Source of the DNA: Syntrophorhabdales bacterium
GTDB taxonomy: Bacteria; Desulfobacterota; Syntrophorhabdia; Syntrophorhabdales; WCHB1-27
Direction: 5' to 3'
DNA length: 64,000 nucleotides
Assembly (NCBI GenBank): GCA_050012495.1
Contig: JBEKHB010000001.1
Location: 11,304-75,303 of the forward strand
The position numbers were made by a program, and so were the translations under genes. Position 1 is the stretch's first letter; every line of letters begins with the position of its first letter. Under the pieces are notes generated by a model that was not told where the DNA came from, did not search any database, and saw nothing but the letters and a program-made list of their open reading frames with translations. Positions 31,728-62,213 of the stretch are shown in pieces.

Positions 31728-31739
31728 CAAACTACCGCC
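31728..31739 (-). promoter_or_regulatory. ops-like pause element GGCGGTAGTTTG
   Basis: Exact match to the GGCGGTAGnnTG consensus. Intergenic and oriented toward the left EPS cluster. Confidence 0.7.
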
Positions 31740-31786
31740 TGGGATAGCTTATCAACGGTCCATAAACGCCAGGGCTGCCACAGTTG

Positions 31787-32095: not shown

Positions 32096-32112
32096 TGTCT
32101 GAAAAGTTTACA
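32096..32112 (-). promoter_or_regulatory. YGTAAA-N7-GACR box (putative enhancer)
   Basis: Minus strand TGTAAACTTTTCAGACA. Intergenic. Confidence 0.55.
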
Positions 32113-32366
32113 AAAATCCGCGATGGGTACGAGACAGCCTATAAAGAGATTCTATGCGCAGTAGTCATCACCCCGGTCACAATAGAGCAATTGCGAAAGG
32201 CTCACCCGGCGCGAAAAACCGATGAGGGACGATCCAGGCATCCCCACATCACTTCGTTTTCGTTGATTTCTCGCAGGGGAAACTTCGAGTGTCTGCCTCT
32301 TCTTTAGATGGCTACAGCACGGAGATGCATGATTAAAGAAGCCACGGACCGACCCGCCGCCTTCTC

Positions 32367-33112: not shown

Positions 33113-33129
33113 TGTAAACTGCGTCGACA
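33113..33129 (+). promoter_or_regulatory. YGTAAA-N7-GACR box
   Basis: TGTAAACTGCGTCGACA (TGT-N11-ACA). Confidence 0.55.
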
Positions 33130-33240
33130 TGTCTATCACTATCCTGCGCTCCCATCATAAAAGAACTGCTGTCCGGCCCCCTTGCTCGGACTCACCTTGA
33201 GTGGAGTAGCGCGGCCCGCCTCATTTCAGAGGGTGATGTA

Positions 33241-33257
33241 TGTAAAGGACCGGGACA
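33241..33257 (+). promoter_or_regulatory. YGTAAA-N7-GACR box (enhancer of promoter 1)
   Basis: TGTAAAGGACCGGGACA, 134 bp upstream of the sigma-54 element. Confidence 0.65.
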
Positions 33258-33374
33258 CTGCGCACGAAGTTGCCGGGCCTTTTCCGGAACCTGTTTCCCG
33301 CACCGGGCCGCCGCTCTCCGTGATTTCAACCACTTGGACGAGTGGGCACCTCATGTGTGCGAGAACCTGCCATG

Positions 33375-33390
33375 TGGCATGCTTATTGTA
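33375..33390 (+). promoter_or_regulatory. Sigma-54 -24/-12 promoter 1
   Basis: TGGCATGCTTATTGTA. Near-consensus, with GT instead of GC at -12. Near-identical copy at 36219. Confidence 0.7.
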
Positions 33391-33598
33391 AACATCGGAT
33401 TCGAGCGCAAAGGCAGTCTGTCAAGGTCATTCATCGTGCTCCCTCTTTTTAGGTCCTGTAAGCGAAGGCAGTTGAGGCGCGGTAACTGGCGCCAATGAAG
33501 ACATCCGCGGAGGAAGTCAGTGCTTCAGCGGGAGGACCGGGGCATGCAGATGACATATCTGAAACGCGTGAACCACGCACCACGGGCATTCATCCGAT

Positions 33599-33610
33599 GG
33601 CGGTAGCCTA
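33599..33610 (+). promoter_or_regulatory. ops-like element GGCGGTAGCCTA
   Basis: One mismatch to GGCGGTAGnnTG. Ends ~35 nt before the first gene of the right cluster. Confidence 0.65.
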
Positions 33611-33644
33611 TCCGTAGTACGTCGTCTCCTTAAGGACTTAGCAT

Positions 33645-35078
33645 ATGGAGCCTACTATGCAGGCGGAATCTTCAAGTTTGGCGGTAAATCAGGGGAACCG
33701 CAGCGAGAACGAACTCGCACTGCAGGGTTTTCCCAGGCAGAAGTTGTTTCTTCTCGCGGGTGATATGGGCTCGATCCTGGCGGCAGGCCTCGTGACGTCC
33801 CTGAGCGCCGCGGGGTCCGTGCCGGCCATATCGTCGCTGCTGACAATTCTGGTGGTCTCGGTCATCTGTTATCCGGCTGCCCTCTATGTCTTTGACATGT
33901 ATAACGCGGAACGTTCTTTCCACCGCGGAGACATGGTAAAGCGATGCCTCTGCGCGATACTCCTGGGCGGCGCCGTTTCAGTCCTCTTTAGCGCGGTGGT
34001 CGGAGAACACGCCATCGCCAGGGGCCAGCCTCTCCATATGGCCATGTTGTTGGCCCTCTTCGCCGGTTGCCGCTACGCCTACTCAACGCTTTCGCAAACC
34101 ACCCTCGTAAAAAAACCTGTGCTGATCGTAGGCGCGGGCGATACCGGCCTGGCCATCTATAATATCCTCCGCTCCCCGGCCTCGCCTTATACCGTGAAAG
34201 GGTTCGTGGATGACGACGGAGCGTCAGCAGCCTGGGCCTACCCCAAAATAGTAGGCACCACCGACCGTGTGACAGAGCTTGCCGGCAACGTCGGGGCCGC
34301 TTCCGTGATACTTGCCATTCCCGGAGACCGCTCAGCCCGGCTCACCCGGCGCATCCTTCAGGCACGGCTGCAGGGGACAGTAATTGAAGAGATGGCAGAC
34401 GTGTATGAGCGACTTACCGGCAGGGTCCCCGTGGAGCACATCCAGGACGAGTGGCTCATGTCCGCTGAAGGGTTCGACATCCTCCATAAAGCCTGCCTCC
34501 GTCATGTCAAGCGTTTTTTGGACCTGGTGATATCGGGCTTCCTGCTTCTCCTTACCTTCCCGGTGATCCTGGTTGCCGGCCTCCTGGTCCATGTAGATTC
34601 GACGGGTCCCGTCTTTTATACCCAGGAGCGTGTGGGAAAAAACGGAAAGGTATTTAAGGTTTTCAAGTTTCGCTCCATGAGAGTGGACGCCGAGAGCCAG
34701 GGCGCCCAATGGGCCGCCGGTGACGATCCCAGGGTCACCCGCGTAGGGAAATGGCTGCGCCTCTACCGCATAGACGAGCTGCCGCAGTTGTGGAACGTGG
34801 TCAGGGGCGACATGAGCGTGGTAGGCCCTAGGCCGGAACGACCTGAGTTCGTGCACTTCCTGGAGCAGAGGATCCCCTACTATAGCCTTCGGCATTATGT
34901 CACACCGGGGATCACGGGTTGGGCGCAAGTGAGCTTCAGATACGCATCATCGGTAGAGGACGCGCTGAACAAGCTTGAGGCGGACGTCTACTACATAAAG
35001 AACATGTCACTTCTCCTCGACCTCAAGATCCTGCTAAAAACTATAGGGGTGGTCTTCCTTGCACAAGGGTCACGTTAA
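33645..35078 (+). CDS. Initiating polyprenyl-phosphate sugar transferase (WcaJ/PEP-CTERM-system type)
   Basis: N-terminal TMs, YERLTGRVP, FKFRSM, RIDELPQL, GPRPERP, PGITGWAQV. Confidence 0.93.
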   Translation: MEPTMQAESSSLAVNQGNRSENELALQGFPRQKLFLLAGDMGSILAAGLVTSLSAAGSVPAISSLLTILVVSVICYPAALYVFDMYNAERSFHRGDMVKRCLCAILLGGAVSVLFSAVVGEHAIARGQPLHMAMLLALFAGCRYAYSTLSQTTLVKKPVLIVGAGDTGLAIYNILRSPASPYTVKGFVDDDGASAAWAYPKIVGTTDRVTELAGNVGAASVILAIPGDRSARLTRRILQARLQGTVIEEMADVYERLTGRVPVEHIQDEWLMSAEGFDILHKACLRHVKRFLDLVISGFLLLLTFPVILVAGLLVHVDSTGPVFYTQERVGKNGKVFKVFKFRSMRVDAESQGAQWAAGDDPRVTRVGKWLRLYRIDELPQLWNVVRGDMSVVGPRPERPEFVHFLEQRIPYYSLRHYVTPGITGWAQVSFRYASSVEDALNKLEADVYYIKNMSLLLDLKILLKTIGVVFLAQGSR

Positions 35079-35097
35079 GCCGGAAAGTGTAGTGCCC

Positions 35098-35985
35098 ATG
35101 TCGGAGCATGAAAGCCCCGTGGTTCGCCTCGTGAAAAACACTACAAGCCCCATCGTGATGACCGTCGACCTTGAGGACTGGTTCCAGGTCGAAAACGCGA
35201 GGTCCGCTTATCCGGTCGCCACATGGGACTCTTGTGACCTCCGTGTAAATCTTTATACAAAAATCCTCCTCGATATCTTTGACTATTACAATATCCACTG
35301 CACCTTTTTTGTCCTTGGCTGGCTGGCCGAAAGATGCAAGGGCGTCGTCCTGGATATCCAGGCCAGGGGCCATGAGCTGGCATCCCATGGATATGGTCAC
35401 CAGCTTACGTATGAGCTGTCGAGGGAAAAACTCCGGGAAGACCTCTATAGAAGCAAGAGTCTCCTCGAAGACATCACGGGCATGCGCGTTCTTGGCTACC
35501 GCGCCCCCAGCTTCTCGATCACCGACAGGGTCCTTGAAGTCCTGAGAGAACTCGACTACGTCTACGACTCCAGCTACAACAATGCGGCCGTCAACAAACG
35601 CTACGGGAAAATCGAGGGGCAATGGCACGCATCGTCGACAGGCCACCTGATGGCGCGGAACGGAATTTTAGAGCTGCCCGTCAGCAACCTGAATATCGAC
35701 AGGCTTGCCTTGCCCTGGGGCGGCGGGGGTTACTTCAGGTTCTGGCCTTTCCCCCTTTTTAAGTGGGGGGTCAAGCGTATCCTGAGCACCCAGGGCAGTT
35801 ACCTCTTTTACTTTCACCCCTGGGAGCTCGACTCTGTTCAGCCAAAGATCAAAAATATCGGCATCACAAAAAGGTTTCGCCACCGCGTAAATCTTGTCAA
35901 CACATTTCATCGCATCAATCTGTTTTTCTCTGCGTTCAAACATTGCCGGTTCATTTCATGTACCTCCTTCATTGAAAATGGATAG
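35098..35985 (+). CDS. Polysaccharide deacetylase, DUF3473 / PEP-CTERM-locus type
   Basis: MTVDLEDWFQV, TFFVLGW, GHELASHGYGH, GYRAPSFSI, GGGGYFR, FYFHPWELD. Confidence 0.92.
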   Translation: MSEHESPVVRLVKNTTSPIVMTVDLEDWFQVENARSAYPVATWDSCDLRVNLYTKILLDIFDYYNIHCTFFVLGWLAERCKGVVLDIQARGHELASHGYGHQLTYELSREKLREDLYRSKSLLEDITGMRVLGYRAPSFSITDRVLEVLRELDYVYDSSYNNAAVNKRYGKIEGQWHASSTGHLMARNGILELPVSNLNIDRLALPWGGGGYFRFWPFPLFKWGVKRILSTQGSYLFYFHPWELDSVQPKIKNIGITKRFRHRVNLVNTFHRINLFFSAFKHCRFISCTSFIENG

Positions 35986-36085
35986 ACAAGAAGGTCTGGG
36001 GGAAGCGCAGGAGACGCGCGCAACCTCGGGTGCATATACCGGCAAAAAGGAGCGAATTCGTTCGCTCTCTTCGATCCCATGGCGT

Positions 36086-36102
36086 CGTAAAGGAATCGGA
36101 CA
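36086..36102 (+). promoter_or_regulatory. YGTAAA-N7-GACR box (enhancer of promoter 2)
   Basis: CGTAAAGGAATCGGACA followed by ctg, as at 33241. 133 bp upstream of the sigma-54 element. Confidence 0.65.
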
Positions 36103-36218
36103 CTGTAAAAGAAACCGTCGCATCTTTTTTTACGGTCGGACTTCCGGCAGGACCGCTCACCTCATGTGATATCGGATACTTAGAAACACAGCAGGCGGCA
36201 TCTTTGACAGCCGGCGCC

Positions 36219-36234
36219 TGGCACATTTATTGTA
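36219..36234 (+). promoter_or_regulatory. Sigma-54 -24/-12 promoter 2
   Basis: TGGCACATTTATTGTA. Confidence 0.72.
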
Positions 36235-36440
36235 ACCACGCATATCAAGCGCAAAGAGACCTGAATCCAAGGTGTTCATCTTACGCGCTGTCAGAACCAA
36301 TGCAGGCGAAAGAAGTCCGGCAGGGCGAGTTGCTGGTTCGTCCACATGCGTACGGGCGAGATTCATCCCGCGAGATGCGCTGCCGTACCTTTAGGGGAAC
36401 ATGGAAGACGCAAGTTCATACCGCACAAACCTTTTCCAAT

Positions 36441-36452
36441 GGCGGTAGCCTG
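36441..36452 (+). promoter_or_regulatory. ops element GGCGGTAGCCTG
   Basis: Exact GGCGGTAGnnTG in the 5' leader of the long downstream operon. Confidence 0.75.
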
Positions 36453-36504
36453 CCCGCATGACGCCTTTTTCAAGAAATGAATCCACACCCGCGAGGGGTG
36501 ACAA

Positions 36505-37578
36505 ATGAAAGTGCTGGTAACGGGTTCACACGGGTACATAGGATCAATTCTGGTCCCCATGCTCTTGAGAGAGGGGTATGAAGTTCTGGGATTGGACAGC
36601 AATCTCTATGAAGAGTGCGTATTCGGGGACGCGAGACCCGACATGCCCGGTCTGAAGAAGGACGTCCGTGATGTCGGGCCTTCGGATCTGCGGGGAGTCG
36701 ATGCGGTAATTCACCTCGCCGCCCTGTCAAATGACCCATTGGGCGATCTCAACCCTGAGCTCACCTTTGAGATCAATTACAAGGCGTCGGTCCGTCTGGC
36801 GCGGCTCGCAAAGCAATCAGGGATAAGCCGCTTTATTTTCTCTTCGTCGTGCAGCACCTACGGGGCATCAGGGGATGAGATGCTGACAGAAACAGCTCAC
36901 TTCCACCCGGTAACCCCCTACGGTGAATCGAAGGTCTTCGTGGAAAGGGATATAGCGGCCCTTGCGGATTCGACATTCAGCCCCACCTTTCTGCGAAATG
37001 CGACCGTCTATGGCGTCTCCTGTAGAATGCGCTTCGATCTGGTATTGAACAACCTGGTTGCCTGGGCAGTCACCCGCAGTCTGGTATACCTCAAGAGCGA
37101 TGGAACCCCCTGGCGGCCCATCGTCCATGTTGAAGACGTGTCGCGCGCCTTCCTGGCAGTCCTGAAGGCACCGCGTGAGACCGTCCATAACCGGGCGTTC
37201 AATGTGGGGAGTAACAGTGAAAACTACCGGATCAGCGAATTGGCAGACATCGTGAAAGAGACCGTGCCCGACTGCCGTATTGAATTTGCGAGCGACGCGG
37301 GCCCGGACAAGCGCTGTTACCGGGTGGATTTCACCAGGTTTGCCGACACATTTCCCGACTATAGGCCACAATGGACGGCCCGGCTGGGGGCCGGCGAGCT
37401 TTATGCGGCATACCGGAAGACAGGGCTGGATCTCGATGACTTCGAGGGGCCCCGTTTCAAGCGCATTGAGCACATAAAGAAGCTTCTGAACACCGGGCGC
37501 CTGGACAGCACCCTCAGATGGGCCGGGCCCCGGGCAAAAGACCATGTCCCAAGGGAGACCCTCCATGCAGAAAGATAA
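36505..37578 (+). CDS. NAD-dependent sugar epimerase/dehydratase (extended SDR)
   Basis: [32 protein letters not shown]. Confidence 0.92.
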
Positions 37579-38872
37579 GGATGCGTCCGTCAGTTACGGG
37601 ACCGGTCCCGCAACCGACGGGCAACAATTGACAGATAACGTCCATGCCAGTTGCCGTTTCTGCGGCACGCCCCTCTATCAGACTGTCGTGGATCTCGGTA
37701 TGTCCCCCCTTTGTGAGAGCTATCTGCGACAGGACCAGTTGAACGAGATGGAAGCCTTTTATCCGCTCCACGTGTACGTCTGTGACAACTGCTTCCTCGT
37801 TCAGCTCGAGGAATACGTGTCTCCGAAAAAGATATTCACCGAATACGCCTATTTCTCTTCGTATTCGGCATCCTGGCTGGAGCATGCCCGCTCTTATTCG
37901 AGAATGGCTACGGAACGTTTTGGCATCGACGACACCAGTCTCGTCGTCGAGCTTGCGAGCAACGACGGCTATTTACTGCAATATTTTGCGAAAGCGGGCA
38001 TTCGCGTCCTCGGGGTTGAGCCGGCCTTGAACGTGGCGGATGCGGCCTTGAAGAAAGGCATCCCCACCCTCACAAGGTTCTTCGGCGTCGAGCTGGCGAA
38101 AGAAATGGCCTCTCTCGGCCAGCAGGCAGATCTCCTCATCGGGAACAATGTGCTCGCTCAGGTCCCTGACCTCCATGACTTTGTGAAAGGCATGCAGATC
38201 GTGCTCACACCGAAGGGGGCAATCACCATGGAATTCCCCTATCTTATGGAACTCATCAAAAAAAACCAGTTCGATACCATCTACCACGAACATTTCTCAT
38301 ACTTTTCATTTACCACGGTCGAAAAAATCTTTGCCGCTCATAACCTGAAACTCTTCGACGTGGAAAAAATTCCCACCCACGGCGGTTCTCTGCGCATTTA
38401 CGCCTGCCACGCGGAGGACGGATCGAAGCAGGTGAACAGCCGCGTGGAGGCGCTCAGGGCTCACGAAGAAAAGGCGGGTGTGAAAACCCTCGGTTACTAT
38501 ATTTCCTTTTCCGAGAAGGTGAGAGAGACGAAGCGAAAGCTGCTTGAGTTTCTCATCTCCACAAAAGAGCAAGGGAAATCGATTGCCGGGTACGGCGCCC
38601 CCGGAAAAGGGAACACCCTTTTGAATTACTGCGGCGTCAGGTCGGATTTTCTCGACTATACGGTTGACAGGAGCCCGTACAAACAGAACAAGTTCCTGCC
38701 CGGCACGCACATCCCCATTTTCGATCCGGCAAAGATCGACGAGACGAAGCCTGACTATCTGTTGATCCTCCCCTGGAACTTTAGGGACGAGGTCATAAAA
38801 CAGATGGCCCACATCCGGAGCTGGGGCGGTAAGTTCGTTGTTCCCATACCTGAGGTGAGGGTCTATCCGTGA
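37565..38872 (+). CDS. NDP-hexose C-methyltransferase (Zn-binding)
   Basis: CRFC...CDNC Zn site, [39 protein letters not shown]. Confidence 0.92.
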
Positions 38873-39417
38873 TTTTTACCGAAATAAAACTCGGAGGGGC
38901 CTTCGTGGTGGAAATCGAAAAGCTGGAAGACCGGCGCGGCTTCTTTGGCCGCACCTGGTGCCGAAGGGAATTCGAGGCTCACGGCCTGAACCCCCAGCTT
39001 GTACAGTGTAGTGTTTCCTTCAACACGAGTAAATGCACCCTGCGAGGCATGCACTATCAGTCTGCTCCGTACCGGGAGGCAAAGCTGGTCCGCTGCACAT
39101 CAGGCTCTCTCTATGATGTGGTCGTCGACCTCCGCCCGGAATCACCGACATTTATGGAATATTTCGGAGCGGTGCTGGAGAGCCGGGACAAGAGGAACAC
39201 GATATACGTCCCCGAAGGGTTCGCCCACGGGTTCCTTACCCTTGAAGAGCATACCGAGGTCCTTTATCAGATGTCGGAGTTCTATGCCCCTGGGGCCGCA
39301 CGGGGATTCAGGTGGAACGACCCATCCTTCGGTATTGAGTGGCCGGAGGCGCCCCGTGTCATCTCGGACCGCGACGGGGAGTACCCCGACTTTACCGCAC
39401 CGGGAGGGCCCGTATGA
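38869..39417 (+). CDS. rfbC: NDP-4-keto-6-deoxyhexose 3,5-epimerase (RmlC family)
   Basis: DRRGFF, TLRGMHYQ, AKLVRC, VPEGFAHGF, WND. Confidence 0.92.
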   Translation: MIFTEIKLGGAFVVEIEKLEDRRGFFGRTWCRREFEAHGLNPQLVQCSVSFNTSKCTLRGMHYQSAPYREAKLVRCTSGSLYDVVVDLRPESPTFMEYFGAVLESRDKRNTIYVPEGFAHGFLTLEEHTEVLYQMSEFYAPGAARGFRWNDPSFGIEWPEAPRVISDRDGEYPDFTAPGGPV

Positions 39418-40808
39418 CCGGCCGCCGAATCCGGGCGCCATTCGCGAAAGATGCCCCCGGCCGTGACATGCATACGTTTATAGCCGACCTTTATCCCCTC
39501 TGCAGGAGCATCACGGGCAACGGTCTGCGGGAGACGCTGCGCCGCATACAGACCCACATCCCGTTGACAATCCACGAAGTCCCAAGCGGCACACACGTAT
39601 TCGACTGGACCGTGCCCAGGGAATGGAACATCAGGGATGGGTGGGTGAAGAACGCTCAGGGGGAGAAAGTGATCGACTTCAGCGCCTCGAACCTGCACGT
39701 GGTCAATTACAGCGTGCCCGTACATAAAAAAGTTTCGCTTCCGGAGCTGCGGGAACACCTTTTCACCATACCCGAATTTCCTGACTGGATCCCTTACAGG
39801 ACCGCCTATTATCATGAGAGCTGGGGGTTCTGCCTGAGCCACAACCGTTTGAGGAGTCTGAAAGACGAAGAGTACGAGGTCTATATAGACGCCACCCTCG
39901 AACAGGGGCGCCTCTCTTACGGAGAGTATTATCTCCAGGGGATGAGCGACGAGGAGATACTCATTTCCTGCCACACCTGCCACCCGTCGCTCTGCAACGA
40001 CAACCTGTCCGGCGTCGCGTTGGCCACCTTTCTCGCAAAGCATCTCCGGACACTTTCCGGCCCCAGGTATTCCTACCGGTTCCTTTTCATGCCCGGCACG
40101 ATCGGGGCCATTACCTGGCTTTGCCTGAACGAACCGCAGATCGAACGGATCAGGCACGGCCTCGTGGTCGCCTGCGTAGGCGATTCCGGCCCATTCACCT
40201 ACAAGAAAAGCCGCCGGGGAAATGCCGAGATCGACAGGGCGGCAACGCACGTGCTGGCGCATTCCGGCCGCGAATACAAGATCGTCGACTTCTCTCCCTA
40301 TGGATATGACGAGCGGCAATTCTGCTCGCCCGGCTTCAACCTTCCTGTCGGTTCCCTGACCCGGACCCCCTACGGCCGCTTTCCCGAGTACCATACGTCA
40401 GCCGACAACCTCGACCTGGTCCGGCCCGAAGCCTTAAGCGATTCCTTTGCGGTCTACCTGTCACTACTGGAGGTCCTGGAAGAGAATAACACCTACGTCA
40501 ACACAACACCGAAGTGCGAGCCCAACCTGGGCTCACGGGGGCTTTATGGGGACACAACCGGAGAGAAAGAACGGCTCAGCCTGCTCTGGGTCTTGAACCA
40601 ATCGGACGGTACGCCTTCGCTCCTCGATATAGCAGAGAAGGCAGACCTGGACTTCAGCCTCATCTCAGCCGCAGCCGACGCCCTGTCGTCAAAGGGGCTG
40701 CTGCGGGAGAGGAAGCCGGAAAGAACCGAGATTGCTCTGGCCTCCGCGGGCAGTACCGATGGCAACACAAACCCCGCTCCTTGCAAAAATTGTGAGATGC
40801 TTGAATAA
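39414..40808 (+). CDS. DUF4910 (DUF2172/M28-like plus winged helix) protein
   Basis: LYPLCRSITGNG, FDWTVPREW, CHPSLCNDNLSG, YDERQFCSPG, EYHTSAD, CEPNLG.RGLY. Confidence 0.9.
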   Translation: MTGRRIRAPFAKDAPGRDMHTFIADLYPLCRSITGNGLRETLRRIQTHIPLTIHEVPSGTHVFDWTVPREWNIRDGWVKNAQGEKVIDFSASNLHVVNYSVPVHKKVSLPELREHLFTIPEFPDWIPYRTAYYHESWGFCLSHNRLRSLKDEEYEVYIDATLEQGRLSYGEYYLQGMSDEEILISCHTCHPSLCNDNLSGVALATFLAKHLRTLSGPRYSYRFLFMPGTIGAITWLCLNEPQIERIRHGLVVACVGDSGPFTYKKSRRGNAEIDRAATHVLAHSGREYKIVDFSPYGYDERQFCSPGFNLPVGSLTRTPYGRFPEYHTSADNLDLVRPEALSDSFAVYLSLLEVLEENNTYVNTTPKCEPNLGSRGLYGDTTGEKERLSLLWVLNQSDGTPSLLDIAEKADLDFSLISAAADALSSKGLLRERKPERTEIALASAGSTDGNTNPAPCKNCEMLE

Positions 40809-40823
40809 AGAAGGAGGTGCTCA

Positions 40824-41633
40824 ATGAAAGTGGTGCTCTTTTGCGGCGGTCTTGGCACAAGATTGGGAGAATTGACAGAGGACGTTCCGAAGCCGATGGT
40901 GAAGATCGGGTACCGGCCCATACTGTGGCACCTCATGAAGTATTATGCCTATTACGGCCACAACGAGTTTATTCTTTGTCTCGGCTACAAGGCCGACAAG
41001 ATAAAGGACTACTTTCTCAACTACAACGAATGTCTTTCGAACGACTTCACCATGTTAAACGGGGGAAAAGACCTCCATTTGGAGAACTGTGATATCGCGG
41101 ACTGGAAGATCACTTTTGCGGACACGGGGTTGCGGTCGAACATCGGCCAGCGTCTCAAGGCGGTCGAAAAATATCTGGACGGGGACGAGCTCTTTCTCGC
41201 CAATTACTCGGATGGACTCACAAACCTCTATCTGCCCGACATGATAGATTTCTTTGTGCAAAGCGGCAAGCTAGCCTCCTTCCTCTGCGTAAAACCTTCG
41301 CAGAGCTTTCACGTAGTCTCAATGAACAAGAGCAATCTCATAGAGGACATACAATACGTTGCCAATACGGATATCACGATCAACGGCGGCTATTTCGTGT
41401 TCAGAAGAGAAATATTCCAGTATATCAGGAACAACGAAGAGCTGGTCGAAGAGCCGTTCAGAAGGCTGATCGAGAGGGAACAGCTCCTCGGATACAAATA
41501 TAACGGGTACTGGTGCATGGATACCTTCAAAGAGCACCAGGAGCTGACCGACATGTACCATAGCGGGCACGCGCCCTGGGAGGTGTGGAAGCTCAACGAC
41601 GAAAACGGGCGCAGGGAGATTGCGCGTGCTTAG
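40824..41633 (+). CDS. rfbF: Glucose-1-phosphate cytidylyltransferase family
   Basis: LFCGGLGTR, PKPMV.IG, LCLGYK, DTG, INGGYF, CMDT. Confidence 0.85.
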   Translation: MKVVLFCGGLGTRLGELTEDVPKPMVKIGYRPILWHLMKYYAYYGHNEFILCLGYKADKIKDYFLNYNECLSNDFTMLNGGKDLHLENCDIADWKITFADTGLRSNIGQRLKAVEKYLDGDELFLANYSDGLTNLYLPDMIDFFVQSGKLASFLCVKPSQSFHVVSMNKSNLIEDIQYVANTDITINGGYFVFRREIFQYIRNNEELVEEPFRRLIEREQLLGYKYNGYWCMDTFKEHQELTDMYHSGHAPWEVWKLNDENGRREIARA

Positions 41634-42285
41634 GCTGAACTTCGAAAAAGGTGACGGATCACCCCGAAAGCTCCTGTGCCTCGGCGCGCATGCGGACGAT
41701 ATTGAAATCGGGTGCGGCGGCACCCTATTGCGGCTCTGCGAAGAACGCGATGGTATAGAAGTCCGCTGGGTCGTATTCGCCGCTTCCGGACCGAGGGCAG
41801 CGGAAGCGCGGCTGAGCGCCTCCCTCTTTCTCGAAAAGGCATACCGAAAGACCGTCACCATAAAACATTTCAAAGATAGCTTTTTCCCCTTTCAAGGCGC
41901 CCGGATAAAGGAGTATTGTGAAGACCTGAAAGCGTCGTTTTCTCCCGACCTGATTTTCACTCACTACAGAGGCGACCTTCACCAGGACCATCGCTTCATC
42001 TCGGAAGTTACATGGAACACATTCCGGGACCACCTTATCCTGGAGTACGAGGTGGTCAAATACGACGGTGATCTGGGAAATCCCAATTTTTTTATCGGTC
42101 TGGATACGGAGACCTGCCAAAGGAAAATTAATGCCCTCCTGACCTGCTTCAAGACACAGGCCGCAAGGAAATGGTTCTCGGAGGAGACGTTCTTGTCGAT
42201 CCTGAAGCTCCGGGGCGTTGAATCGAATGTGCCGGGCGAGTATGCCGAGGGCTATTATTGCCGAAAAATGGTTTTCCAGGGATGA
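41620..42285 (+). CDS. PIG-L/LmbE family deacetylase
   Basis: GAHADDIEIGCGG, DLHQDH. Confidence 0.9.
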   Translation: MRVLRLNFEKGDGSPRKLLCLGAHADDIEIGCGGTLLRLCEERDGIEVRWVVFAASGPRAAEARLSASLFLEKAYRKTVTIKHFKDSFFPFQGARIKEYCEDLKASFSPDLIFTHYRGDLHQDHRFISEVTWNTFRDHLILEYEVVKYDGDLGNPNFFIGLDTETCQRKINALLTCFKTQAARKWFSEETFLSILKLRGVESNVPGEYAEGYYCRKMVFQG

Positions 42286-42334
42286 AAACAGAAAGCCAAA
42301 AAAACTGCTATCGCAAATAAAAAGGGGCACGACC

Positions 42335-43249
42335 ATGATACACCTGCAACAACCCGCGTGGGTCTACCTGGGTGGAAAGATGAGACCATGGCATGAGGCC
42401 GTCCTGCATATCTCAAGCGAGGCGGTAACCCGCGGCCTGAATGTCTACGAGGGTCTCAAAGGCTACTGGCAGGAAGATGGGGTTAAATTCGGAATAGTCG
42501 CCATGCCGAGGCACTTCGCCCGGTTGCAGCGCTCGGCCCGGTTGTTACACATCCCCTGTGTAATGGGCTATGAGGATTTCGAGCGGGCATGCCACGAACT
42601 TGTCCGGGCGCTCTATGAGCCGGAGAGGGATATGTGGATTCGGGCCACTTTGTATGTAATCGAAGGCCATTGGGGCGAGGGCACGGTGGCCGACCTCGTT
42701 CTGACCGCATACCATCAGGACAAAGCGCCGCCCGCGCCGATTGACATCGGCGTGAGCACCTGGCAGCGAGCTGCCGATAACGTGCTGCCTCCGAGCATAA
42801 AAACCAGCACCAACTATCAAGTGGCGCGCCTTGCACGGATAGAGGGGCGTAGCCGGGGCTACTCCGAAATGATCCTCCTTAACCAATGGGGCCGCGTGGC
42901 TGAGGCAACCGGTGCGGGTGCGCTCATGGTGAAAAACGGTAAGGTTATTACCCCGCCGCCTTCAGAGGGGGCGCTCGAGAGCATCACGACCTGGATTATC
43001 AGGGACATCTGTGCATCGATGGGCATCGAGTTCATCGTAAGGCCGATCGACCGGACGGAGCTTTACATCGCCGACGAGGTGTATCTCGCGGGCACCCTTG
43101 CAGAGATAACTCCCGTCCGCCGCATCGACGAGTTTCCGCTGCCGCCGGACGGCCCCGTTCTCGCGCGGGTCGCAGCTCGCTACAGAGCAGCCGTCCGGAG
43201 TACCGACCCCCACCAGGCGGTCGACCTTTCCATAATCCCCGGCCGGTAG
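42335..43249 (+). CDS. Class IV PLP aminotransferase (IlvE/Dat-like)
   Basis: GLNVYEGLKGY, HFARLQRSA, IKTSTNY, LESIT, ADEVYLAGT. Confidence 0.88.
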   Translation: MIHLQQPAWVYLGGKMRPWHEAVLHISSEAVTRGLNVYEGLKGYWQEDGVKFGIVAMPRHFARLQRSARLLHIPCVMGYEDFERACHELVRALYEPERDMWIRATLYVIEGHWGEGTVADLVLTAYHQDKAPPAPIDIGVSTWQRAADNVLPPSIKTSTNYQVARLARIEGRSRGYSEMILLNQWGRVAEATGAGALMVKNGKVITPPPSEGALESITTWIIRDICASMGIEFIVRPIDRTELYIADEVYLAGTLAEITPVRRIDEFPLPPDGPVLARVAARYRAAVRSTDPHQAVDLSIIPGR

Positions 43250-43327
43250 CCTGAGTCCTGCCGCAAAAGGCGGCCCGCAGCGAAACTTTCGTTTCCTAGA
43301 GCGAATTCATAAGGAGATGGGGGCTAT

Positions 43328-44113
43328 ATGATGGAATCGATAGGAGAAATTATCAAATACGGCGACCTCCTCTATATGATGGTCTGGAGGGATATACGGA
43401 TAAAGTACAAGCAGTCGGTAATCGGGATCATGTGGGCCGTGTTCATGCCGATGGTCATCGTCGGGACGGGCATATTGGTAAGATACGGTTTTGCGCTGGC
43501 TTCACACGCGCCTGTCGATTTCAATGATCTGGCCGCGGTATCCGTGAAAGCGGTACCCTGGGCATTTTTTGTCTCCACTATCCGTTTCTCGACCGGCAGT
43601 CTTGTGGGGAACCCCAACCTCGTGACCAAGATATACTTCCCGAAGATCATTTTTCCGATTTCCTCGATGTTTTCGCAGATGTTCGATCTTGCAATTGCCT
43701 CGGGCCTCCTGGCGGTAGTGCTGGCTTTCATGCGCATCGGATTGAGCGTCCACCTGCTGTGGGTCCCCATCCTGCTCGCCCTGCTCGTGCTGTGTGCGAC
43801 AGGTATGGGAATACTCTTATCCGCGGCCAATCTCTTTTACCGGGACGTGAAATACCTGGTGGAGGTGGTTGTCACCTTTGCCATCTTCTTTACCCCGGTA
43901 TTCTATGATGTGTCCATGTTTGGAAAATGGGCGTACATCTTCCTGCTTAATCCCCTGGCCCCGATCCTTGAAGGGATCGCTGCCTGCGTGGTGCATCACC
44001 GGATGCCTCAGATCGAGTGGATCCTGTACAGCGCGGCCGCGTCCCTGGCAATATTCGCGTGTGCATTCGCGTTCTTTACGAAATTGGAACCGCTGTTTGC
44101 GGAAAGGATTTGA
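43328..44113 (+). CDS. wzm: ABC-2 polysaccharide exporter permease
   Basis: RDIRIKYKQSVIG..W, KIYFP, YRDV, TPVFY, LNP. Confidence 0.92.
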   Translation: MMESIGEIIKYGDLLYMMVWRDIRIKYKQSVIGIMWAVFMPMVIVGTGILVRYGFALASHAPVDFNDLAAVSVKAVPWAFFVSTIRFSTGSLVGNPNLVTKIYFPKIIFPISSMFSQMFDLAIASGLLAVVLAFMRIGLSVHLLWVPILLALLVLCATGMGILLSAANLFYRDVKYLVEVVVTFAIFFTPVFYDVSMFGKWAYIFLLNPLAPILEGIAACVVHHRMPQIEWILYSAAASLAIFACAFAFFTKLEPLFAERI

Positions 44114-44114
44114 A

Positions 44115-45359
44115 ATGAAGACATCTGAGACCGTGCTCGAAATGGATCATGTAGCGAAGAAATTCAAGAAAGGGGAAGCCTTTGATTCCCTGCGGGATCT
44201 TATACCCGCGCTGTCCGGCAGGGTTTTCACACGCAAGAAAAGGTCCCTGGCCGAACACGAGTTCTGGGCCTTAAAGGACGTATCATTTCAGGTGGCCAGA
44301 GGAGAGGCCTTCGGGATCATAGGGCCTAACGGCGCAGGGAAGAGCACCATCCTCAAACTGCTGTGCCGGGTGATGAAGCCGACCGAAGGGCGCATAGTCG
44401 TGAACGGCACCATGTCGGCCCTCATCGAGGTGGGCGCCGGTTTTCATCCTGACCTCACCGGCCGTGAGAATATTTTTCTCAACGGCGCAATTCTCGGTAT
44501 GAAGAAAGAACAAATCAGGAAGAGATTTGACGAGATCGTAGAATTCTCGGGTCTTGCGGATTTCATCGACACCCCGGTCAAACGTTACTCCTCCGGCATG
44601 TACGCGCGCCTCGGTTTCTCCGTGGCCGCCCATGTAGACCCCGATATCCTGATCGTCGATGAAGTCCTGAGTGTGGGCGACCACTTGTTCCAGGTGAAGT
44701 GCGGACAAAAAATGAAGCAGATAAAAGAAGATGCAGGCGCCACGGTAATATTCGTCTCTCATAACCTTAGGGCGGTAGCCGAGCTGTGCGACAGGCTGCT
44801 TCTTCTCGAACGGGGTGAATGCGTGCAGCTGGGGCCTCCCGGCGAGGTGATCAATTCCTATTTGAACCGAATCCTGCAGCGGCCGGTCTCCTTTACACAT
44901 GGGGTGGGGATATCGAAGGTCACGGTCCGCGGGAGGACAGGTGAGCAGGTGCACTTCGAATCAGGGGAGAAAGCGTGGATCGAGATCGAGGTATGCGCGA
45001 CGAAACACGTCAGCGGCCTTGGCCTGGCAATCGGGTTCAAGACCCAGGATCATTGGAGTTTTTTCGACACCTCGACAAGCCGGCTCGGGAAGAGGACGTT
45101 CTCGGTAGGGCCGGACCGGACCGTCAGGTACACGTTTGAGCTCGATCTGCACCTGGGTCCGGGCAGTTACTATTTCGACGTAGCTCTCTACCGGTACGAC
45201 GCCCAAATGATTTTCGACGAGTTCCTCCAGGCGGGAACGCTGATGATCAGCACCGAGAAGGCTATACATGGGATAGCGAACCTGTATCCCGTCGCCTATG
45301 AGCAAGATGACATCTCCGACACCTTCGAATTGATGAGGTCGAGACCCGGCGTGGCATAG
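44115..45359 (+). CDS. wzt: ABC polysaccharide exporter ATPase with Wzt_C domain
   Basis: FWALKDVSF, GPNGAGKST, YSSGM, VDEVLSVGD, C-terminal Ig-like extension. Confidence 0.93.
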   Translation: MKTSETVLEMDHVAKKFKKGEAFDSLRDLIPALSGRVFTRKKRSLAEHEFWALKDVSFQVARGEAFGIIGPNGAGKSTILKLLCRVMKPTEGRIVVNGTMSALIEVGAGFHPDLTGRENIFLNGAILGMKKEQIRKRFDEIVEFSGLADFIDTPVKRYSSGMYARLGFSVAAHVDPDILIVDEVLSVGDHLFQVKCGQKMKQIKEDAGATVIFVSHNLRAVAELCDRLLLLERGECVQLGPPGEVINSYLNRILQRPVSFTHGVGISKVTVRGRTGEQVHFESGEKAWIEIEVCATKHVSGLGLAIGFKTQDHWSFFDTSTSRLGKRTFSVGPDRTVRYTFELDLHLGPGSYYFDVALYRYDAQMIFDEFLQAGTLMISTEKAIHGIANLYPVAYEQDDISDTFELMRSRPGVA

Positions 45360-45500
45360 TTCAACAATAATAGGTCGACTATGACCCGGAGGGCCTCATT
45401 CTTAATTCAGGGATAATCATGGTTACCGATCACACATCATTGCCGGACAACTCACAGGACAGGGCCATACGTAAAGGCTAAAAAGGAATAAGACGGGAGG

Positions 45501-46553
45501 GTGCGTATGTCAGGCATGCCTTGGATAAAGAACATGGGCAAGCAGATGCTTGCGGCGAGATGCGCCGCCGCTCAGGGATTGCGCGTGAAGCTCTTTCGCG
45601 ATTGGCAGCCGGAGCTCGATGAAGCCCTCGAAAGCTTGCCCGAGAACGAACTCCTCCCTCACGATCTGTTCCGCTCCCTCATGAAGATGACGGACCCGAA
45701 AATGAGACAGATAAGTCTGATCAGGGAACATGGAGTGCCCGTCGCTTTGGCCGGCCTCAGAAACAGGTGGGGCTATTGGGAGCCCGTCACGCAATGGATT
45801 GTGCCGGGAGTGCTCTTCCCCGTAAAAGAAGGCTATATGTCCCGGGTGCTGCCGGCCCTTGATCTCCAGATTCAAATCGCGTGGTGGAGATGGAACGAGC
45901 CACCGCCAAAAATGGATTGCATAAAACAAATAAAAATGACGCCTACCAGGGGCATGTCCTGTTCCGAGGATTTTGAGCACTACTGGCGCCGGTCAGGCCA
46001 CATGAAAACTATTCAGAAGGCGAGAAACAGGTGCAAAGGCTTTGAATTGAGGACTAACACACCGAATGCCGCGGAATGGACTATCAGGAATTGGGATGCC
46101 AAGTGGCGCACACCCGGGACGGGAGAGTCCCCGGACCTGGCCGAAAGGCTCCTGGTTGCCCGGTGCCTGGAAGAACGGGGACTGCATCACACGCTCCTGC
46201 TTTCCGACAAGGACGAACCGGTCGCCGGCGGCACCCTCATGGCAGATCGCAACGAAGTCGTGCTGCATTGCAACTACCGCAATCCGAAGTACGACTGGTA
46301 CAGTGTGATGAACCGGCTCGCAGAGTTAACGTTCTATTGGGCAAAAGAAAGGGGATTTACAAAAATTGACATGGGCGGCTCTTTCGACTACAAGGAGAAA
46401 TGGGCGCCGGAGGCCGGCCAGAAATGGGAGTTCACCGTGTGCCCCGAATATGTCCTCTATAAAGGACGGATATCCGTATTTGCGGGGAAAGTGCGGAACG
46501 GACTGAAGCGCTGTTCCGGAAGACCTGCCTCATTGAATCCATCTGCGAGCTAA
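45501..46553 (+). CDS. GNAT-family (CelD/BcsL-like) acyltransferase
   Basis: FEHYW...IQKARNR, ID.GG..DYKEKW C-terminal motif. Confidence 0.7.
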   Translation: MRMSGMPWIKNMGKQMLAARCAAAQGLRVKLFRDWQPELDEALESLPENELLPHDLFRSLMKMTDPKMRQISLIREHGVPVALAGLRNRWGYWEPVTQWIVPGVLFPVKEGYMSRVLPALDLQIQIAWWRWNEPPPKMDCIKQIKMTPTRGMSCSEDFEHYWRRSGHMKTIQKARNRCKGFELRTNTPNAAEWTIRNWDAKWRTPGTGESPDLAERLLVARCLEERGLHHTLLLSDKDEPVAGGTLMADRNEVVLHCNYRNPKYDWYSVMNRLAELTFYWAKERGFTKIDMGGSFDYKEKWAPEAGQKWEFTVCPEYVLYKGRISVFAGKVRNGLKRCSGRPASLNPSAS

Positions 46554-46563
46554 GAGGTTCTCC

Positions 46564-48000
46564 ATGTCCTATCCCGCACCCACATTTCAGCCGCTGCCGG
46601 TGAGCCCCCGTGGGGTCCGCCCGGAGGGCAGCCCCCGGGAAGCCAAGGGCCGGCCGCGAATCGGGCTCCTCAGCCCCTATACGGGTTCCAACCTGGGCGA
46701 CGCCGCCATCATCGAATCGGCACGGACCCACCTGCTGCGGCTCTTTCCCGACGCCGGGATGCTGCTGATCGTCCTTAACTGCGGCCGCGCCTCAAGGGCC
46801 CACGGCCTCGACTCCTTTCCACTGACTGCCGTGCCCCGCGCGTTTTATTTTACCGTGGCGGATGCGCTGCCCGCGGAGGCTCCCGTCGGCGACGGGTCGC
46901 CGCCCGCCCGCCCGCCCGCACTTCCCGGAGGGATGAGATCCGCTCTCAAGGGAGCGGCAAGGCACGTCCCTCTGGTCCTGCCGGCAGCCCAGCGGCTCCG
47001 GGACCACCTTCATGGGGCTGCGCTCGAAGCGCTCCACCTCATGGAGTCGTGGCGCATGGTGAAAAGCCTGGACTGCCTGGTAGTCGTCGGCGGCGGCCAG
47101 TTCGACGACGAATTCGGAGGACCCTGGGCTCACCCCTACTCGATGTTGAAGTGGACCAGGCTAGCCGCGAAAGAGGGCGTCCCTGTCTCTTTTATCGGTA
47201 CAGGGGTGGACAAGCTCCGATATCCTCTCAGCCGTCTATTTTTACGCAACACCCTTTCCAGGGCACAACGCGTCTCTTTGCGCGATGCGGGGTCTCTCGA
47301 CATGCTGCGCCGTATGGGCATCCAAGGCGATCTCATTTACTGTCCTGATCTGGCCTTCGGGCTCGCACAGCCCCGTGGTGATACGCCATTTCCTCACTCG
47401 TTACCGCCGCAGCGTCTCACCATAGGTCTCAGTCCTATTGCGTACGGTCTTCCCGGCAGTTGGCCGACAGATCTTTTGGCGCTTTTCAATCGATATTGGC
47501 GAGAATGGGAGTCCTTCGCGGTTTCCCTCCTCGACTCCGGTCATGCCGTCTCGCTCTTCTGCACCGACGACGCAGACCTTCGATTGACCCGGCGGCTTTA
47601 TGATCGGCTCAAAGTCATGCCCAATGTCAATGGCCGCGTGCATCTCCTGCCCGGGCTCAGTCTCCCCCGGCTCATGTCCGGACTGAAGACGTTTGACGCC
47701 GTCGTCGCAAGCCGCCTGCACGGGTGCCTCCTGAGCCATCTCTGCGGGACACCTGCCCTGGCGATCTCCTATCGCAGGAAGGTAGCCGCGCATATGGCCG
47801 ATATGGGACAAGAACGCTTCTCTCTGGATTTCGAAAACTTTACTGCAACGGAAGCACGCCGGTCCCTCTTCGACCTGCTCGGAGACCGGGAGGCACTTTC
47901 AGCCTCGCTCGCGCGCGCATGCGAGGTAAAACGCAAAGCCGTGGAAGAGGAATTCGTAGCCGTGGGCAAAAAACTCACGTTAAGGAGCGGCAATAAATGA
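46564..48000 (+). CDS. Polysaccharide pyruvyl transferase family
   Basis: NLGDAAI, VGGGQF, SLRDAGS, PDLAF, ASRLHG. Confidence 0.88.
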   Translation: MSYPAPTFQPLPVSPRGVRPEGSPREAKGRPRIGLLSPYTGSNLGDAAIIESARTHLLRLFPDAGMLLIVLNCGRASRAHGLDSFPLTAVPRAFYFTVADALPAEAPVGDGSPPARPPALPGGMRSALKGAARHVPLVLPAAQRLRDHLHGAALEALHLMESWRMVKSLDCLVVVGGGQFDDEFGGPWAHPYSMLKWTRLAAKEGVPVSFIGTGVDKLRYPLSRLFLRNTLSRAQRVSLRDAGSLDMLRRMGIQGDLIYCPDLAFGLAQPRGDTPFPHSLPPQRLTIGLSPIAYGLPGSWPTDLLALFNRYWREWESFAVSLLDSGHAVSLFCTDDADLRLTRRLYDRLKVMPNVNGRVHLLPGLSLPRLMSGLKTFDAVVASRLHGCLLSHLCGTPALAISYRRKVAAHMADMGQERFSLDFENFTATEARRSLFDLLGDREALSASLARACEVKRKAVEEEFVAVGKKLTLRSGNK

Positions 48001-49046
48001 CGGTGTCAAGAACCAACAGGTCCGGACGGGCCAAACCGGCGACGGACGGGCCCCTTGTCGCTGTCGTCACGCCTTTCTTCAATACCGCGGCGTACCTGGA
48101 CGAATGCATTCAAAGCGTGGCCGGCCAGACCTACACGAATTGGGAATATATTCTGGCGGATAACTGCAGCACCGATAATTCGGCTCATATCGTGGAAAAG
48201 TACGCGGCATCCGATAAGAGAATCCGCCTGATCCGGGAGGTCGAATTCCTGGGACAGACCGAGAACTATAACCGGGCCCTTACGTATATATCGCCGGGAA
48301 GCACGTACTGCAAAATCGTTCAGGCCGACGACTGGATCTATCCAGCCTGCCTGGAGGAGATGATCGAGGTTGCCGAATCGGGCCACAACGTGGGCCTGGT
48401 TTCATCCTTTACGCTCTATGGAGACCACGCCGGCCACGGCGGCCTGCCCCTCGCCGGGGGACCGGTCTATCCGGGCACGGAGGCAGCGAGGGCTTTCCTC
48501 CTCAAGGGCAAGACCCTCTTCGGCTCGCCGACCTGCGTCATGTACCTGAGCGATGCCGTCCGATCCCGCGAGCCGTTTTTTTCCACCACCACGCGTTATT
48601 TCGAGGACACCGAGGCATGCCTCGACATACTGCGGGACCATGAGTTCGGGTTCGTGCCACAGGTGCTGAGCTTCAACCGGCGCGACAACGACTCCATCTG
48701 GAGCGGATTGAAACAGTATAACCCCTATGTCCTCCACGAGGTCATGCTCCTCCACCTTTTCGGGCGCCATTTCCTCGACCGGGGGGAGTTCGCCCGGCGG
48801 CTTCGTCAGCTTGAAGACGTCTATTACGACTTGCTCGCGCAAGCCGCTCTCAAGGGATATGGGAAGGACTTCTGGGCGTTTCACCTCCAGGGACTGGCGA
48901 GCGTCGGGCAGAAGGTCAACTACGGAAAGGTCGTCTTCCGGGCCTTCCCTATCATGGCCTACTCCTTATTGAAGCCGCAGCGGGGCGTCCGTGCCCTCTG
49001 GCGCAGGTGCTTCAGGGCGAGTGGCGAGGTGGCGAGTGGCGAGTAA
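47997..49046 (+). CDS. GT2 glycosyltransferase
   Basis: VVTPFFN, DNCSTD, QADD. Confidence 0.9.
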   Translation: MTVSRTNRSGRAKPATDGPLVAVVTPFFNTAAYLDECIQSVAGQTYTNWEYILADNCSTDNSAHIVEKYAASDKRIRLIREVEFLGQTENYNRALTYISPGSTYCKIVQADDWIYPACLEEMIEVAESGHNVGLVSSFTLYGDHAGHGGLPLAGGPVYPGTEAARAFLLKGKTLFGSPTCVMYLSDAVRSREPFFSTTTRYFEDTEACLDILRDHEFGFVPQVLSFNRRDNDSIWSGLKQYNPYVLHEVMLLHLFGRHFLDRGEFARRLRQLEDVYYDLLAQAALKGYGKDFWAFHLQGLASVGQKVNYGKVVFRAFPIMAYSLLKPQRGVRALWRRCFRASGEVASGE

Positions 49047-49121
49047 GAAATTTAACGCAATGGGTTTCACTCTGAACCCGTCTTTCGGCACCCATCACGC
49101 AGCACTCCTCACTATGCACTG
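49016..49121. repeat. Paired heptamer arrays (GGCGAGT)x4 and (NNCACNN)x5 across a gene junction
   Basis: ggcgagt ggcgagg t ggcgagt ggcgagt (49016-44), then ggcaccc atcacgc agcactc ctcacta tgcactg (49087-121). Confidence 0.65.
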
Positions 49122-49140
49122 TACGGAGGGGTAACTCATC

Positions 49141-49902: not shown

Positions 49903-49943
49903 CCCATATCCGCTTTTTAAAAAGGGAAAAGAGGGCGGCCTTT

Positions 49944-52172: not shown

Positions 52173-52207
52173 AAGAGATACCGACAGAAAAGGAGTACAA
52201 GCGGTTG

Positions 52208-54480: not shown

Positions 54481-54491
54481 TCCGGACGACC

Positions 54492-62196: not shown

Positions 62197-62213
62197 ACGG
62201 AAAAACAACAGAC

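Follow-up and report, generated by a model that had tools for sequence, protein, structure and literature searches.

RfaH is the model for the sequence-specific recruitment of a universal elongation factor, and promoters of the nifH and Pu type, in which an NtrC-type enhancer and an IHF site precede a sigma-54 element, are the classical form of enhancer-dependent initiation. The ops element on which RfaH acts is a feature of enterobacterial lipopolysaccharide, capsule, haemolysin and conjugation operons. RfaH is described as mostly limited to Proteobacteria (PMC7593976). A box upstream of a sigma-54 element has been described for the PEP-CTERM regions of Haft et al. 2006, as motif 1 and motif 2, together with PrsK, PrsR and PrsT (PMC1569441). 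Here we analyse a window of 64,000 nucleotides (nt), positions 11,304 to 75,303 of contig JBEKHB010000001.1 in assembly GCA_050012495.1 (contig C1 of genome G000 in our labelling; 4.55 Mb in 167 contigs), in which two control regions, copy 1 and copy 2, each stand directly 5' of an operon at the centre of an XrtA/PEP-CTERM-type exopolysaccharide locus. Our preferred reading, to which we give a probability of about 0.65, is that they form a duplicated two-stage module, in which sigma-54 control of initiation is followed by an ops-loaded, RfaH-like factor that would secure transcription of the polysaccharide operons.

A preliminary description of this DNA had listed six motifs, namely a box, a sigma-54-type promoter and an ops-like element in each region, and all six are present (Table 1); the spacings it gave for the window are likewise correct, at 134 and 133 nt from box to promoter and 224 and 222 nt from promoter to ops. 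The two regions are homologous over approximately 420 nt with 57% identity. In a global alignment 264 of 464 columns are identical and the score is 21, a value reached by none of 300 dinucleotide shuffles (-39 +/- 8; z 7.5), with random segments of the window scoring -40 +/- 9. Because the homology embraces the regions as a whole, the resemblance reflects duplication and not six independent coincidences, and we conclude from the alignment that the two modules arose through duplication. Counts of the individual motifs in the window are uneven. The box pattern with up to three mismatches has two matches, both exact, where 0.33 are expected (4 of 100 shuffles also gave two), and GGCGGTAGCCT with up to one mismatch has five against 1.05 expected, its exact form occurring only at these two places; the promoter string shows no enrichment at up to three mismatches (four versus 2.76 expected), and its exact form is found solely in the two copies. 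Genome-wide there are three GTAAAGGA-N3-GGACA sites and four TGGCA-N3-TTATTGT sites.

By BLAST, copy 1 is present in five of six congeneric genomes and copy 2 in four of them, and neither is found in 24 more distant relatives; in one congener (G003) DNA searches found neither module, and its sole sigma-54 plus ops match precedes an epimerase gene. Conservation was measured as mean pairwise identity among 11 aligned sequences from six congeneric genomes, and is concentrated in five blocks: the box (0.75), an IHF-like block (0.71), the sigma-54 element (0.85), a block at the predicted 5' end (0.70) and ops (0.72), as against 0.37–0.42 for the four spacers between them. The expectation that the motifs would be kept ahead of orthologous operons is thus borne out in the congeners, where the spacers have diverged. 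The proposed conservation of spacing holds for one interval and fails for the other. Box and promoter are 133–139 nt apart in all 11 sequences, even though the spacer itself is merely 32–44% identical, and the box lies 79–82 nt from the IHF-like block in all 11; the distance from promoter to ops ranges from 99 to 226 nt, being 99–100 nt in two congeners and 211–226 nt in the remaining ones, and it is about 120–132 nt in other genera. Some 120 nt of leader are therefore dispensable, and we attribute the close match of promoter-to-ops distances in the window to common descent rather than to constraint.

The promoter elements carry GGCA and T-ATTGT at -24/-12 spacing in 11/11 sequences. The -12 element had been cited as TTGC, and is in fact TTGT in both copies. 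This variant seems to be in use in the genome: TGGCA-N6-TTGT falls in DNA free of open reading frames (ORFs) at 9 of 41 sites and TGGCA-N6-TTGC at 18 of 53, whereas off-spacing N5/N7 TTGT controls do so at 3 of 52, against an ORF-free background of 9.4% of the genome, all as judged on a crude map (no long ORFs) and not on gene calls. The preliminary description had called for rpoN, which is present as a single Sigma54_DBD gene (202 bits), and family models recognise PrsR and about two dozen other sigma-54 activator genes in G000. Transcription is predicted to start near 33400–33402 in copy 1 and 36245 in copy 2, and a further TTCATCTTACGCGC-like block, kept in most copies, lies about 35 nt beyond the 5'-end block in both leaders. 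We note that the same unusual promoter type, TGGCATGATTATTGTAAGCC, occurs at G000:C16:1230 on the minus strand (L035), ahead of a LuxR-type response regulator gene and without a downstream ops; a sigma-54 activator gene is divergent from it at C16:2404-3456.

An 18-nt-spaced TTGACA-18-TATTGT sequence (36204-36233; 10/12) overlaps the copy 2 promoter, which raises the alternative that both regions are duplicated sigma-70 promoter DNA with TATTGT as the -10 element and an incidental resemblance to sigma-54, the upstream blocks being ordinary activator or repressor sites, for example for three adjacent BldC/excisionase-type helix-turn-helix (HTH) proteins. Neither copy 1 nor most of the congeners keep the -35 of this sequence, but GGCA is invariant although it would fall inside the sigma-70 spacer, and sigma-70-like sites number one against 2.2 expected. 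The -12 is not GC, there is no sigma-54 activator gene nearby, and three paralogous small HTH genes do lie at 30862-32588, with a fourth ahead of the ops on contig C45, all of which would suit a sigma-70 promoter; a distance of about 134 nt between box and promoter with an intervening bend-like block is instead the geometry of an enhancer, correctly spaced TTGT is enriched in non-coding DNA, and elsewhere in the order ops leaders follow canonical GGCA-N6-TTGC promoters. We consider a sigma-70 origin improbable, and the least probable of the three alternatives discussed here.

Upstream of the promoters, copy 1 has a second box (C1:44416), which is also found in the related loci L037, L038, L041 and L042, and a minus-strand box is kept in L037, L038 and L041; no sigma-54 element was seen after the latter (32096-32112) on reading the sequence. 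Against the IHF consensus WATCAANNNNTTR, the IHF-like block has one mismatch in copy 1, none in copy 2 of G004 and one to three in the others, and HU/IHF-family genes are present in G000. The string TGTAAA-N8-ACA has 20 genomic sites, seven of them ORF-free, and a regular-expression search found a sigma-54-like string within 330 nt at the window sites and on contig C115 alone; a box on C61 with a GGCA-type sigma-54 string about 100 nt on was missed by that expression. Such combinations are too few to define a box regulon. The C115 site (L128) is a TGTAAA-N8-ACA box at 1036-1052, 148 nt before a canonical TGGCACGCGAATTGC promoter (1184) and ahead of a methyltransferase-like gene.

A search for a PrsR-like sigma-54 activator had been suggested, and the source genome does encode one, scoring 628.6 bits against a cut-off of 502.6; it is not, however, a conserved activator. 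The family model recognised no PrsR in any of six congeners (38 candidates scored per genome), and a protein search none in five, the best match having 42–43% identity, and yet five of the six keep the modules. Since the congeners retain the boxes with no PrsR found among them, the conserved activator would be another protein; we reject PrsR as the conserved activator on account of its strain-specific island and of the searches that found none in the congeners. That island (L036, G000:C61:12000-22000) extends from about 2990 and holds a PEP-CTERM gene, prsR, prsK and an exosortase gene. It begins about 150 nt past a tmRNA-like gene, where the C61 flank is 91–93% identical to the congeners; its DNA is absent from the three congeners compared, and its prsR shares 67–68% DNA identity with that of another genus in the family. 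The neighbouring small HTH proteins as box binders are a weaker alternative.

The box could nonetheless be the PrsR 'PEP-CTERM box' of Haft et al. 2006, with the modules belonging to a PrsK/PrsR regulon. On the opposite strand the 17-mer of each box ends with TTTACA or TTTACG (TGTCCCGGTCCTTTACA), in keeping with motif 1 as PMC1569441 describes it, and the PEP-CTERM gene beside prsR in G000 has TGTCGGAAATGTTTACA followed about 100 nt on by GGCAT-N5-CTGCA; only one of the four PEP-CTERM gene matches in the genome has this arrangement of box and sigma-54 element. The spacer in the modules is 117 nt as opposed to the 63 +/- 11 (32–92) given in PMC1569441, and the orientation is reversed. The high PrsR score speaks for this proposal, and the position of PrsR, PrsK, the exosortase and the PEP-CTERM gene, on DNA that starts where congener homology ends beside the tmRNA gene, speaks against it, as does the persistence of the modules in genomes where no PrsR was found. 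We judge it unlikely.

The ops-like element differs in its constancy between the copies. In copy 2 it is exact in 5/5 orthologous leaders, with a block identity of 0.91 against 0.32 for the leader, whereas in copy 1 it is exact in G000, G004 and G005 (3/6, or 3/7 with L042). A third, minus-strand ops of the window recurs in the same context in three of six related loci (L037, L039 and L041); L040 has the ops 8-mer in another context, and L038 and L042 have none in the 3 kb examined. The difference between the two copies fits selection that tracks operon length, with ops intact ahead of the 27-kb operon that follows copy 2 and decaying ahead of the two-gene operon that follows copy 1. Elsewhere in G000, leader ops sites stand ahead of genes for an XrtA-associated ATPase (TIGR03015), a PAS-GGDEF protein, two UDP-sugar dehydrogenases and an acyl-CoA-ligase-like protein, and of two genes whose products have no family match. 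Strict coupling of ops to sigma-54, as first envisaged, is not seen at these sites: most have no TGG[CT]A-type string in the 420 nt upstream by regular expression, and the ops on C12 follows GGCAC-N5-TTGCA (by eye, and confirmed in the order-wide pattern scan described below). The ops element is therefore modular and not bound to sigma-54. The Wzm and Wzt genes of the long operon also contain two sense-strand GGCGGTAG 8-mers, at 43711 and 44771; they are not significant, with about 0.5 expected by chance, and could be internal reload sites.

A NusG paralog to read such elements had also been predicted, and the source genome has exactly two NusG-family genes, of which one is RfaH-like. It encodes 164 amino acids, lies between unrelated genes on contig C43, and scores best with the RfaH model TIGR01955 (119.7 bits, as compared with 66.9 for UpxY, 52.4 for NusG and 51.4 for LoaP). 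The E. coli RfaH residues given as base contacts are K10, R16, H20, R23 and R73, with H20 and R23 among three that read ops T6 (10.1101/324400), and E48, I93 and F130 (autoinhibition and fold switch) together with F56 are discussed in PMC7593976 in connection with autoinhibition and RNA polymerase contacts. Aligned to E. coli RfaH, the paralog retains K10, R16, R73, E48, F56, I93 and F130. An AlphaFold2 model from a 10-sequence alignment was unusable (pLDDT, the predicted local distance difference test, 39). All but one of 31 related genomes carry the paralog, with 50–93% identity, and in a sample of the phylum 72 of 301 genomes have a match at E <= 1e-15; outside the order identity does not exceed 40%, and those matches are probably other NusG paralogs. 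The genome also has rho. In two congeners, G006 (L159, G006:C4:158100-158750) and G002 (L160, G002:C88:4100-4750), the RfaH-like gene has one extra G at the same spot, at about codon 134, which moves the last 30 residues to another frame while the downstream sequence is still conserved. These are the genomes with a mutated copy 1 ops, and the extra G may stem from an assembly error, from decay or from a frameshift.

A scan of relatives for co-occurrence of the two elements, as the preliminary description had suggested, shows that the composite recurs. Among 96 Syntrophales genomes the pattern GGCA-N6-TTGY-N60-300-GGCGGTAGCYT has 28 matches in 18 genomes, 14 of them outside the genus, against three for the reversed pattern; because the genomes are related, these counts overstate independence. 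Matches beyond the genus have leaders with no relation to those in the window; most of their promoters are of canonical form (GGCACAAATATTGC, GGCATAGATATTGC and similar), and the gap between promoter and ops is mostly 106–118 nt. In the 20 instances listed, ops lies 18–190 nt ahead of the first long ORF. Ten of these ORFs were run against Pfam (L149, L157, L133, L134, L137, L143, L146, L156, L147 and L158 being left aside), and seven are polysaccharide genes (two DegT, one each of Poly_export, Polysacc_synt_2, a DUF3473 deacetylase, an epimerase and GT17), the other three being one ParB-like protein and two with no family assignment. In the literature searched, which did not cover subscription papers or supplements, we found neither a sigma-54 and ops/RfaH combination described earlier nor an account of RfaH from Geobacter or Syntroph* genera. 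Syntrophales proteins may figure in Data Sets S1H/I of PMC7593976, as RfaH or among the 'uncharacterized homologs'.

These observations bear on a further alternative, in which the sigma-54 promoter and enhancer are real and GGCGGTAGCCT is an RNA-level or protein-binding leader element, and not an RfaH-type loading site; it could, for instance, be a small GGC/GCC hairpin whose target is translation, processing or some other factor. The element always lies close to the first long ORF (46 and 64 nt in the window), a region that also holds translation signals, a 3-base-pair stem can form within GGCGGUAGCC, changes at G2 and T6 are tolerated in copy 1, and the paralog is under the RfaH cut-off and without H20 and R23. 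The element matches the enterobacterial 12-mer at 11–12 of 12 positions, T11 included, however, and stands in unrelated leaders of several genera; a conserved RfaH-like factor with K10, R16 and R73 is present in nearly all relatives. The folding of the leaders, moreover, does not exceed that of shuffled sequences (z -0.30 and -0.33), Rfam gave no match across the window at gathering thresholds, and for 11 leaders RNAalifold predicted no pairs within the first 75 nt. We had suspected an AGCGC/GCGCU stem at the 5' end, which is unsupported, and from the folding and RNAalifold results we dropped the reading of the leaders as riboswitches or structured leaders. A leader element of another kind is in our view unlikely, if the least unlikely of the three alternatives.

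For the two-stage module, the steps from protein binding and transcription start to pausing and antitermination are those we infer from the sequence. In the first stage, a sigma-54 activator would bind the TGT-N11-ACA box or boxes about 150 nt upstream (in copy 1 also about 280 nt), a DNA-bending protein at the IHF-like block would bring it to sigma-54 RNA polymerase at TGGCAY-N5-TTGT, and transcription would then begin near 33401 and 36245. In the second stage, after a largely dispensable leader, the polymerase would reach GGCGGTAGCCT(A/G) on the non-template strand and pause, and the paused polymerase would be loaded with the RfaH-like NusG paralog encoded on C43. This factor would shut out NusG and Rho-dependent termination, such that the whole operon, about 27 kb in the case of copy 2, is transcribed.

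Several findings weigh against this scheme. The paralog is under the curated RfaH cut-off (119.7 versus 144.5 bits for TIGR01955) and has Asn for both H20 and R23; the -12 is TTGT and not the consensus TTGC, and the evidence that TTGT is in use depends on the crude ORF map. In copy 1 the ops carries a mutation at G2 (G006) or T6 (G002 and L042), and in G001/L041 it is deleted. PrsR, the sole family candidate for the activator, is not found in the congeners, and the genomes compared are kin, so that counts across them lack independence. Across the genome the 8-mer GGCGGTAG shows no enrichment, with 186 observed and about 209 expected. The extended word GGCGGTAGC[CT]T is enriched in leaders, which counts in favour of the scheme: of its 13 sites in the genome, seven fall within the 9.4% that is ORF-free. 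The pattern was derived from the two copies and then counted, however, and without them the figure is 6/11; at two further sites, copy 2 and C12, the only overlapping ORFs are unsupported ones of 143 and 106 amino acids. We note here that a repeat beginning GGCGGTAGGGACGTTGTTTCATTC, with about a dozen copies often near contig ends (C49, C53, C63, C73, C74, C88, C90 twice, C99, C111, C139, C142 and others), inflates the non-coding GGCGGTAG count. Absence of rpoN, absence of a NusG paralog, or lack of motif conservation upstream of orthologous operons had been named beforehand as findings that would speak against the circuit, and the genomes show instead both genes and the conserved motifs. As first put forward, then, the composite initiation and antitermination circuit stands in its parts, in the conservation of its motifs and in its recurrence, and falls in the fixed distance from promoter to ops, in the role of PrsR, in the TTGC at -12 and in strict coupling.

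Table 1. Coordinates of the control-region elements and associated features in the window
Feature	Position	Strand	Remarks
Third ops-like element GGCGGTAGTTTG	31728..31739	-	12/12; 68 nt ahead of response regulator gene and divergent export operon
Minus-strand box TGTAAACTTTTCAGACA	32096..32112	-	precedes small HTH gene, ~370 nt upstream of third ops
Second upstream box TGTAAACTGCGTCGACA (TGT-N11-ACA)	33113..33129	+	128 nt before copy 1 box; new to this analysis
Copy 1 control region	33200-33645		directly 5' of operon
Copy 1 enhancer-like box TGTAAAGGACCGGGACA (motif TGTAAAGGACCGGGACACTG at 33241)	33241..33257	+	centred ~150 nt before predicted start; identity 0.75 vs 0.42 for next spacer
Copy 1 IHF-like block GTGATTTCAACCACTTGGAC	33320..33339	+	between box and promoter; identity 0.71
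Copy 1 -24/-12 element TGGCAT-GCTTA-TTGT (motif TGGCATGCTTATTGTA at 33375)	33375..33390	+	GG/TTG spacing correct, T for C at -12
Copy 1 conserved block TTCGAGCGCAAAGG at predicted 5' end	33400..33413	+	identity 0.70
Copy 1 ops-like element GGCGGTAGCCTA	33599..33610	+	11/12 to GGCGGTAGnnTG, non-template strand, 46 nt before ATG
Two-gene operon	33645..35985	+	TIGR03013 XrtA/PEP-CTERM-system sugar transferase (33645-35078), XrtA-type polysaccharide deacetylase (35059-35985)
Copy 2 control region	36045-36505		directly 5' of operon
Copy 2 box CGTAAAGGAATCGGACA (motif CGTAAAGGAATCGGACACTG at 36086)	36086..36102	+	congeners have TGTAAA there
Copy 2 IHF-like block GTGATATCGGATACTTAGAA	36166..36185	+	
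Copy 2 sigma-54-type element TGGCAC-ATTTA-TTGT (motif TGGCACATTTATTGTA at 36219)	36219..36234	+	
Copy 2 conserved block ATCAAGCGCAAAGAG at predicted 5' end	36244..36258	+	
Copy 2 ops-like element GGCGGTAGCCTG	36441..36452	+	12/12 to GGCGGTAGnnTG, 64 nt before ATG
Run of ~23 same-strand ORFs, short gaps, ~27 kb	36505..63362	+	begins after copy 2

The long run downstream of copy 2, whose protein-family scan covers genes up to 48000 only, encodes an epimerase, a C-methyltransferase, a dTDP-sugar epimerase, a nucleotidyltransferase, an aminotransferase, a Wzm/Wzt ABC exporter and a pyruvyl transferase. Leftward, on the minus strand, are the three small HTH genes, a receiver-only response regulator (31660-31088) and then the divergent export operon, with outer-membrane barrel, Poly_export and Wzz/tyrosine kinase proteins. 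The three paralogous HTH ORFs (30862-31053, 31787-32086 and 32367-32588; 63–99 amino acids) have weak matches to BldC, excisionase and MAD1 HTH models and lie between the divergent operons, and the fourth paralog is just upstream of ops at the XrtA-associated ATPase locus (L032, G000:C45). They may be locus-specific regulators.

More broadly, we suggest tentatively, and at somewhat less than even odds, that across the Syntrophales a vertically inherited core RfaH-like factor reads an E. coli-like ops word that is routinely wired after enhancer-dependent sigma-54 promoters. If so, polysaccharide operons would need two independent licences, a signal-dependent switch at initiation and a licence for elongation; ops recognition would have a much greater age or a wider distribution than its mostly proteobacterial record implies, and this two-key architecture of sigma-54 and RfaH would be a general design in the lineage. 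A near-identical ops word with a divergent core reader (N20/N23) would be a natural experiment on the evolution of ops recognition and on which contacts are essential. The placement of ops after sigma-54 promoters would exemplify stacked control of initiation and elongation on costly exopolysaccharide operons, with relevance to aggregation and biofilm formation in methanogenic consortia, and a sigma-54 motif followed by GGCGGTAGCYT could serve as an annotation rule for polysaccharide regulons in such metagenome-assembled genomes.

Among the closest known systems is RfaH/ops, which the modules resemble in a GGCGGTAGnnTG-type 12-mer on the non-template strand, a long leader and long polysaccharide operons, and in a stand-alone NusG paralog that is best matched by the RfaH model and keeps key residues of RfaH (K10, R16, R73, E48, I93, F130 and F56). 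The paralog gene is unlinked to its putative targets, as PMC7593976 states for rfaH. The differences are that the host is an uncultured Syntrophales metagenome-assembled genome and not a gammaproteobacterium; that the paralog is under the NCBIfam RfaH cut-off, with N20/N23 for H20/R23; that ops positions 9–10 are fixed as CY, with a presumably longer hairpin stem; that at least three targets here, and many in the order, would start at sigma-54-type promoters; and that the factor is a near-universal core gene of its order (30/31) and not patchily distributed. UpxY of Bacteroides and LoaP of Firmicutes are likewise specialised NusG paralogs associated with long leaders and polysaccharide (or antibiotic) operons, but their genes stand first in each locus they control and other leader signals are used, whereas here a single unlinked factor would act at many loci by way of an ops-type DNA element; their models also score lower on the paralog.

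With the classical promoters of the nifH and Pu type the modules share GG at -24 with TTG at -12, a bend site some 70 nt upstream and a TGT-N-ACA dyad near -150; they differ in the T at -12, and the IHF assignment is tentative, the consensus being matched with 0–3 mismatches. The PEP-CTERM region of Haft et al. 2006, as PMC1569441 presents it, likewise has a 17-nt TGT...TTTACA-type box upstream of a sigma-54 element and an XrtA polysaccharide locus. It differs in that single PEP-CTERM genes are concerned and not biosynthesis operons; in the modules the box has the inverse orientation, its distance from the promoter is 117 nt in place of about 63, the -12 reads TTGT, an ops is added downstream, and PrsR was not found in the congeners that bear them. 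Each element is of a known kind; what we did not find described in the literature searched is their systematic pairing, and an E. coli-like ops with a core RfaH-like reader in the Syntrophales.

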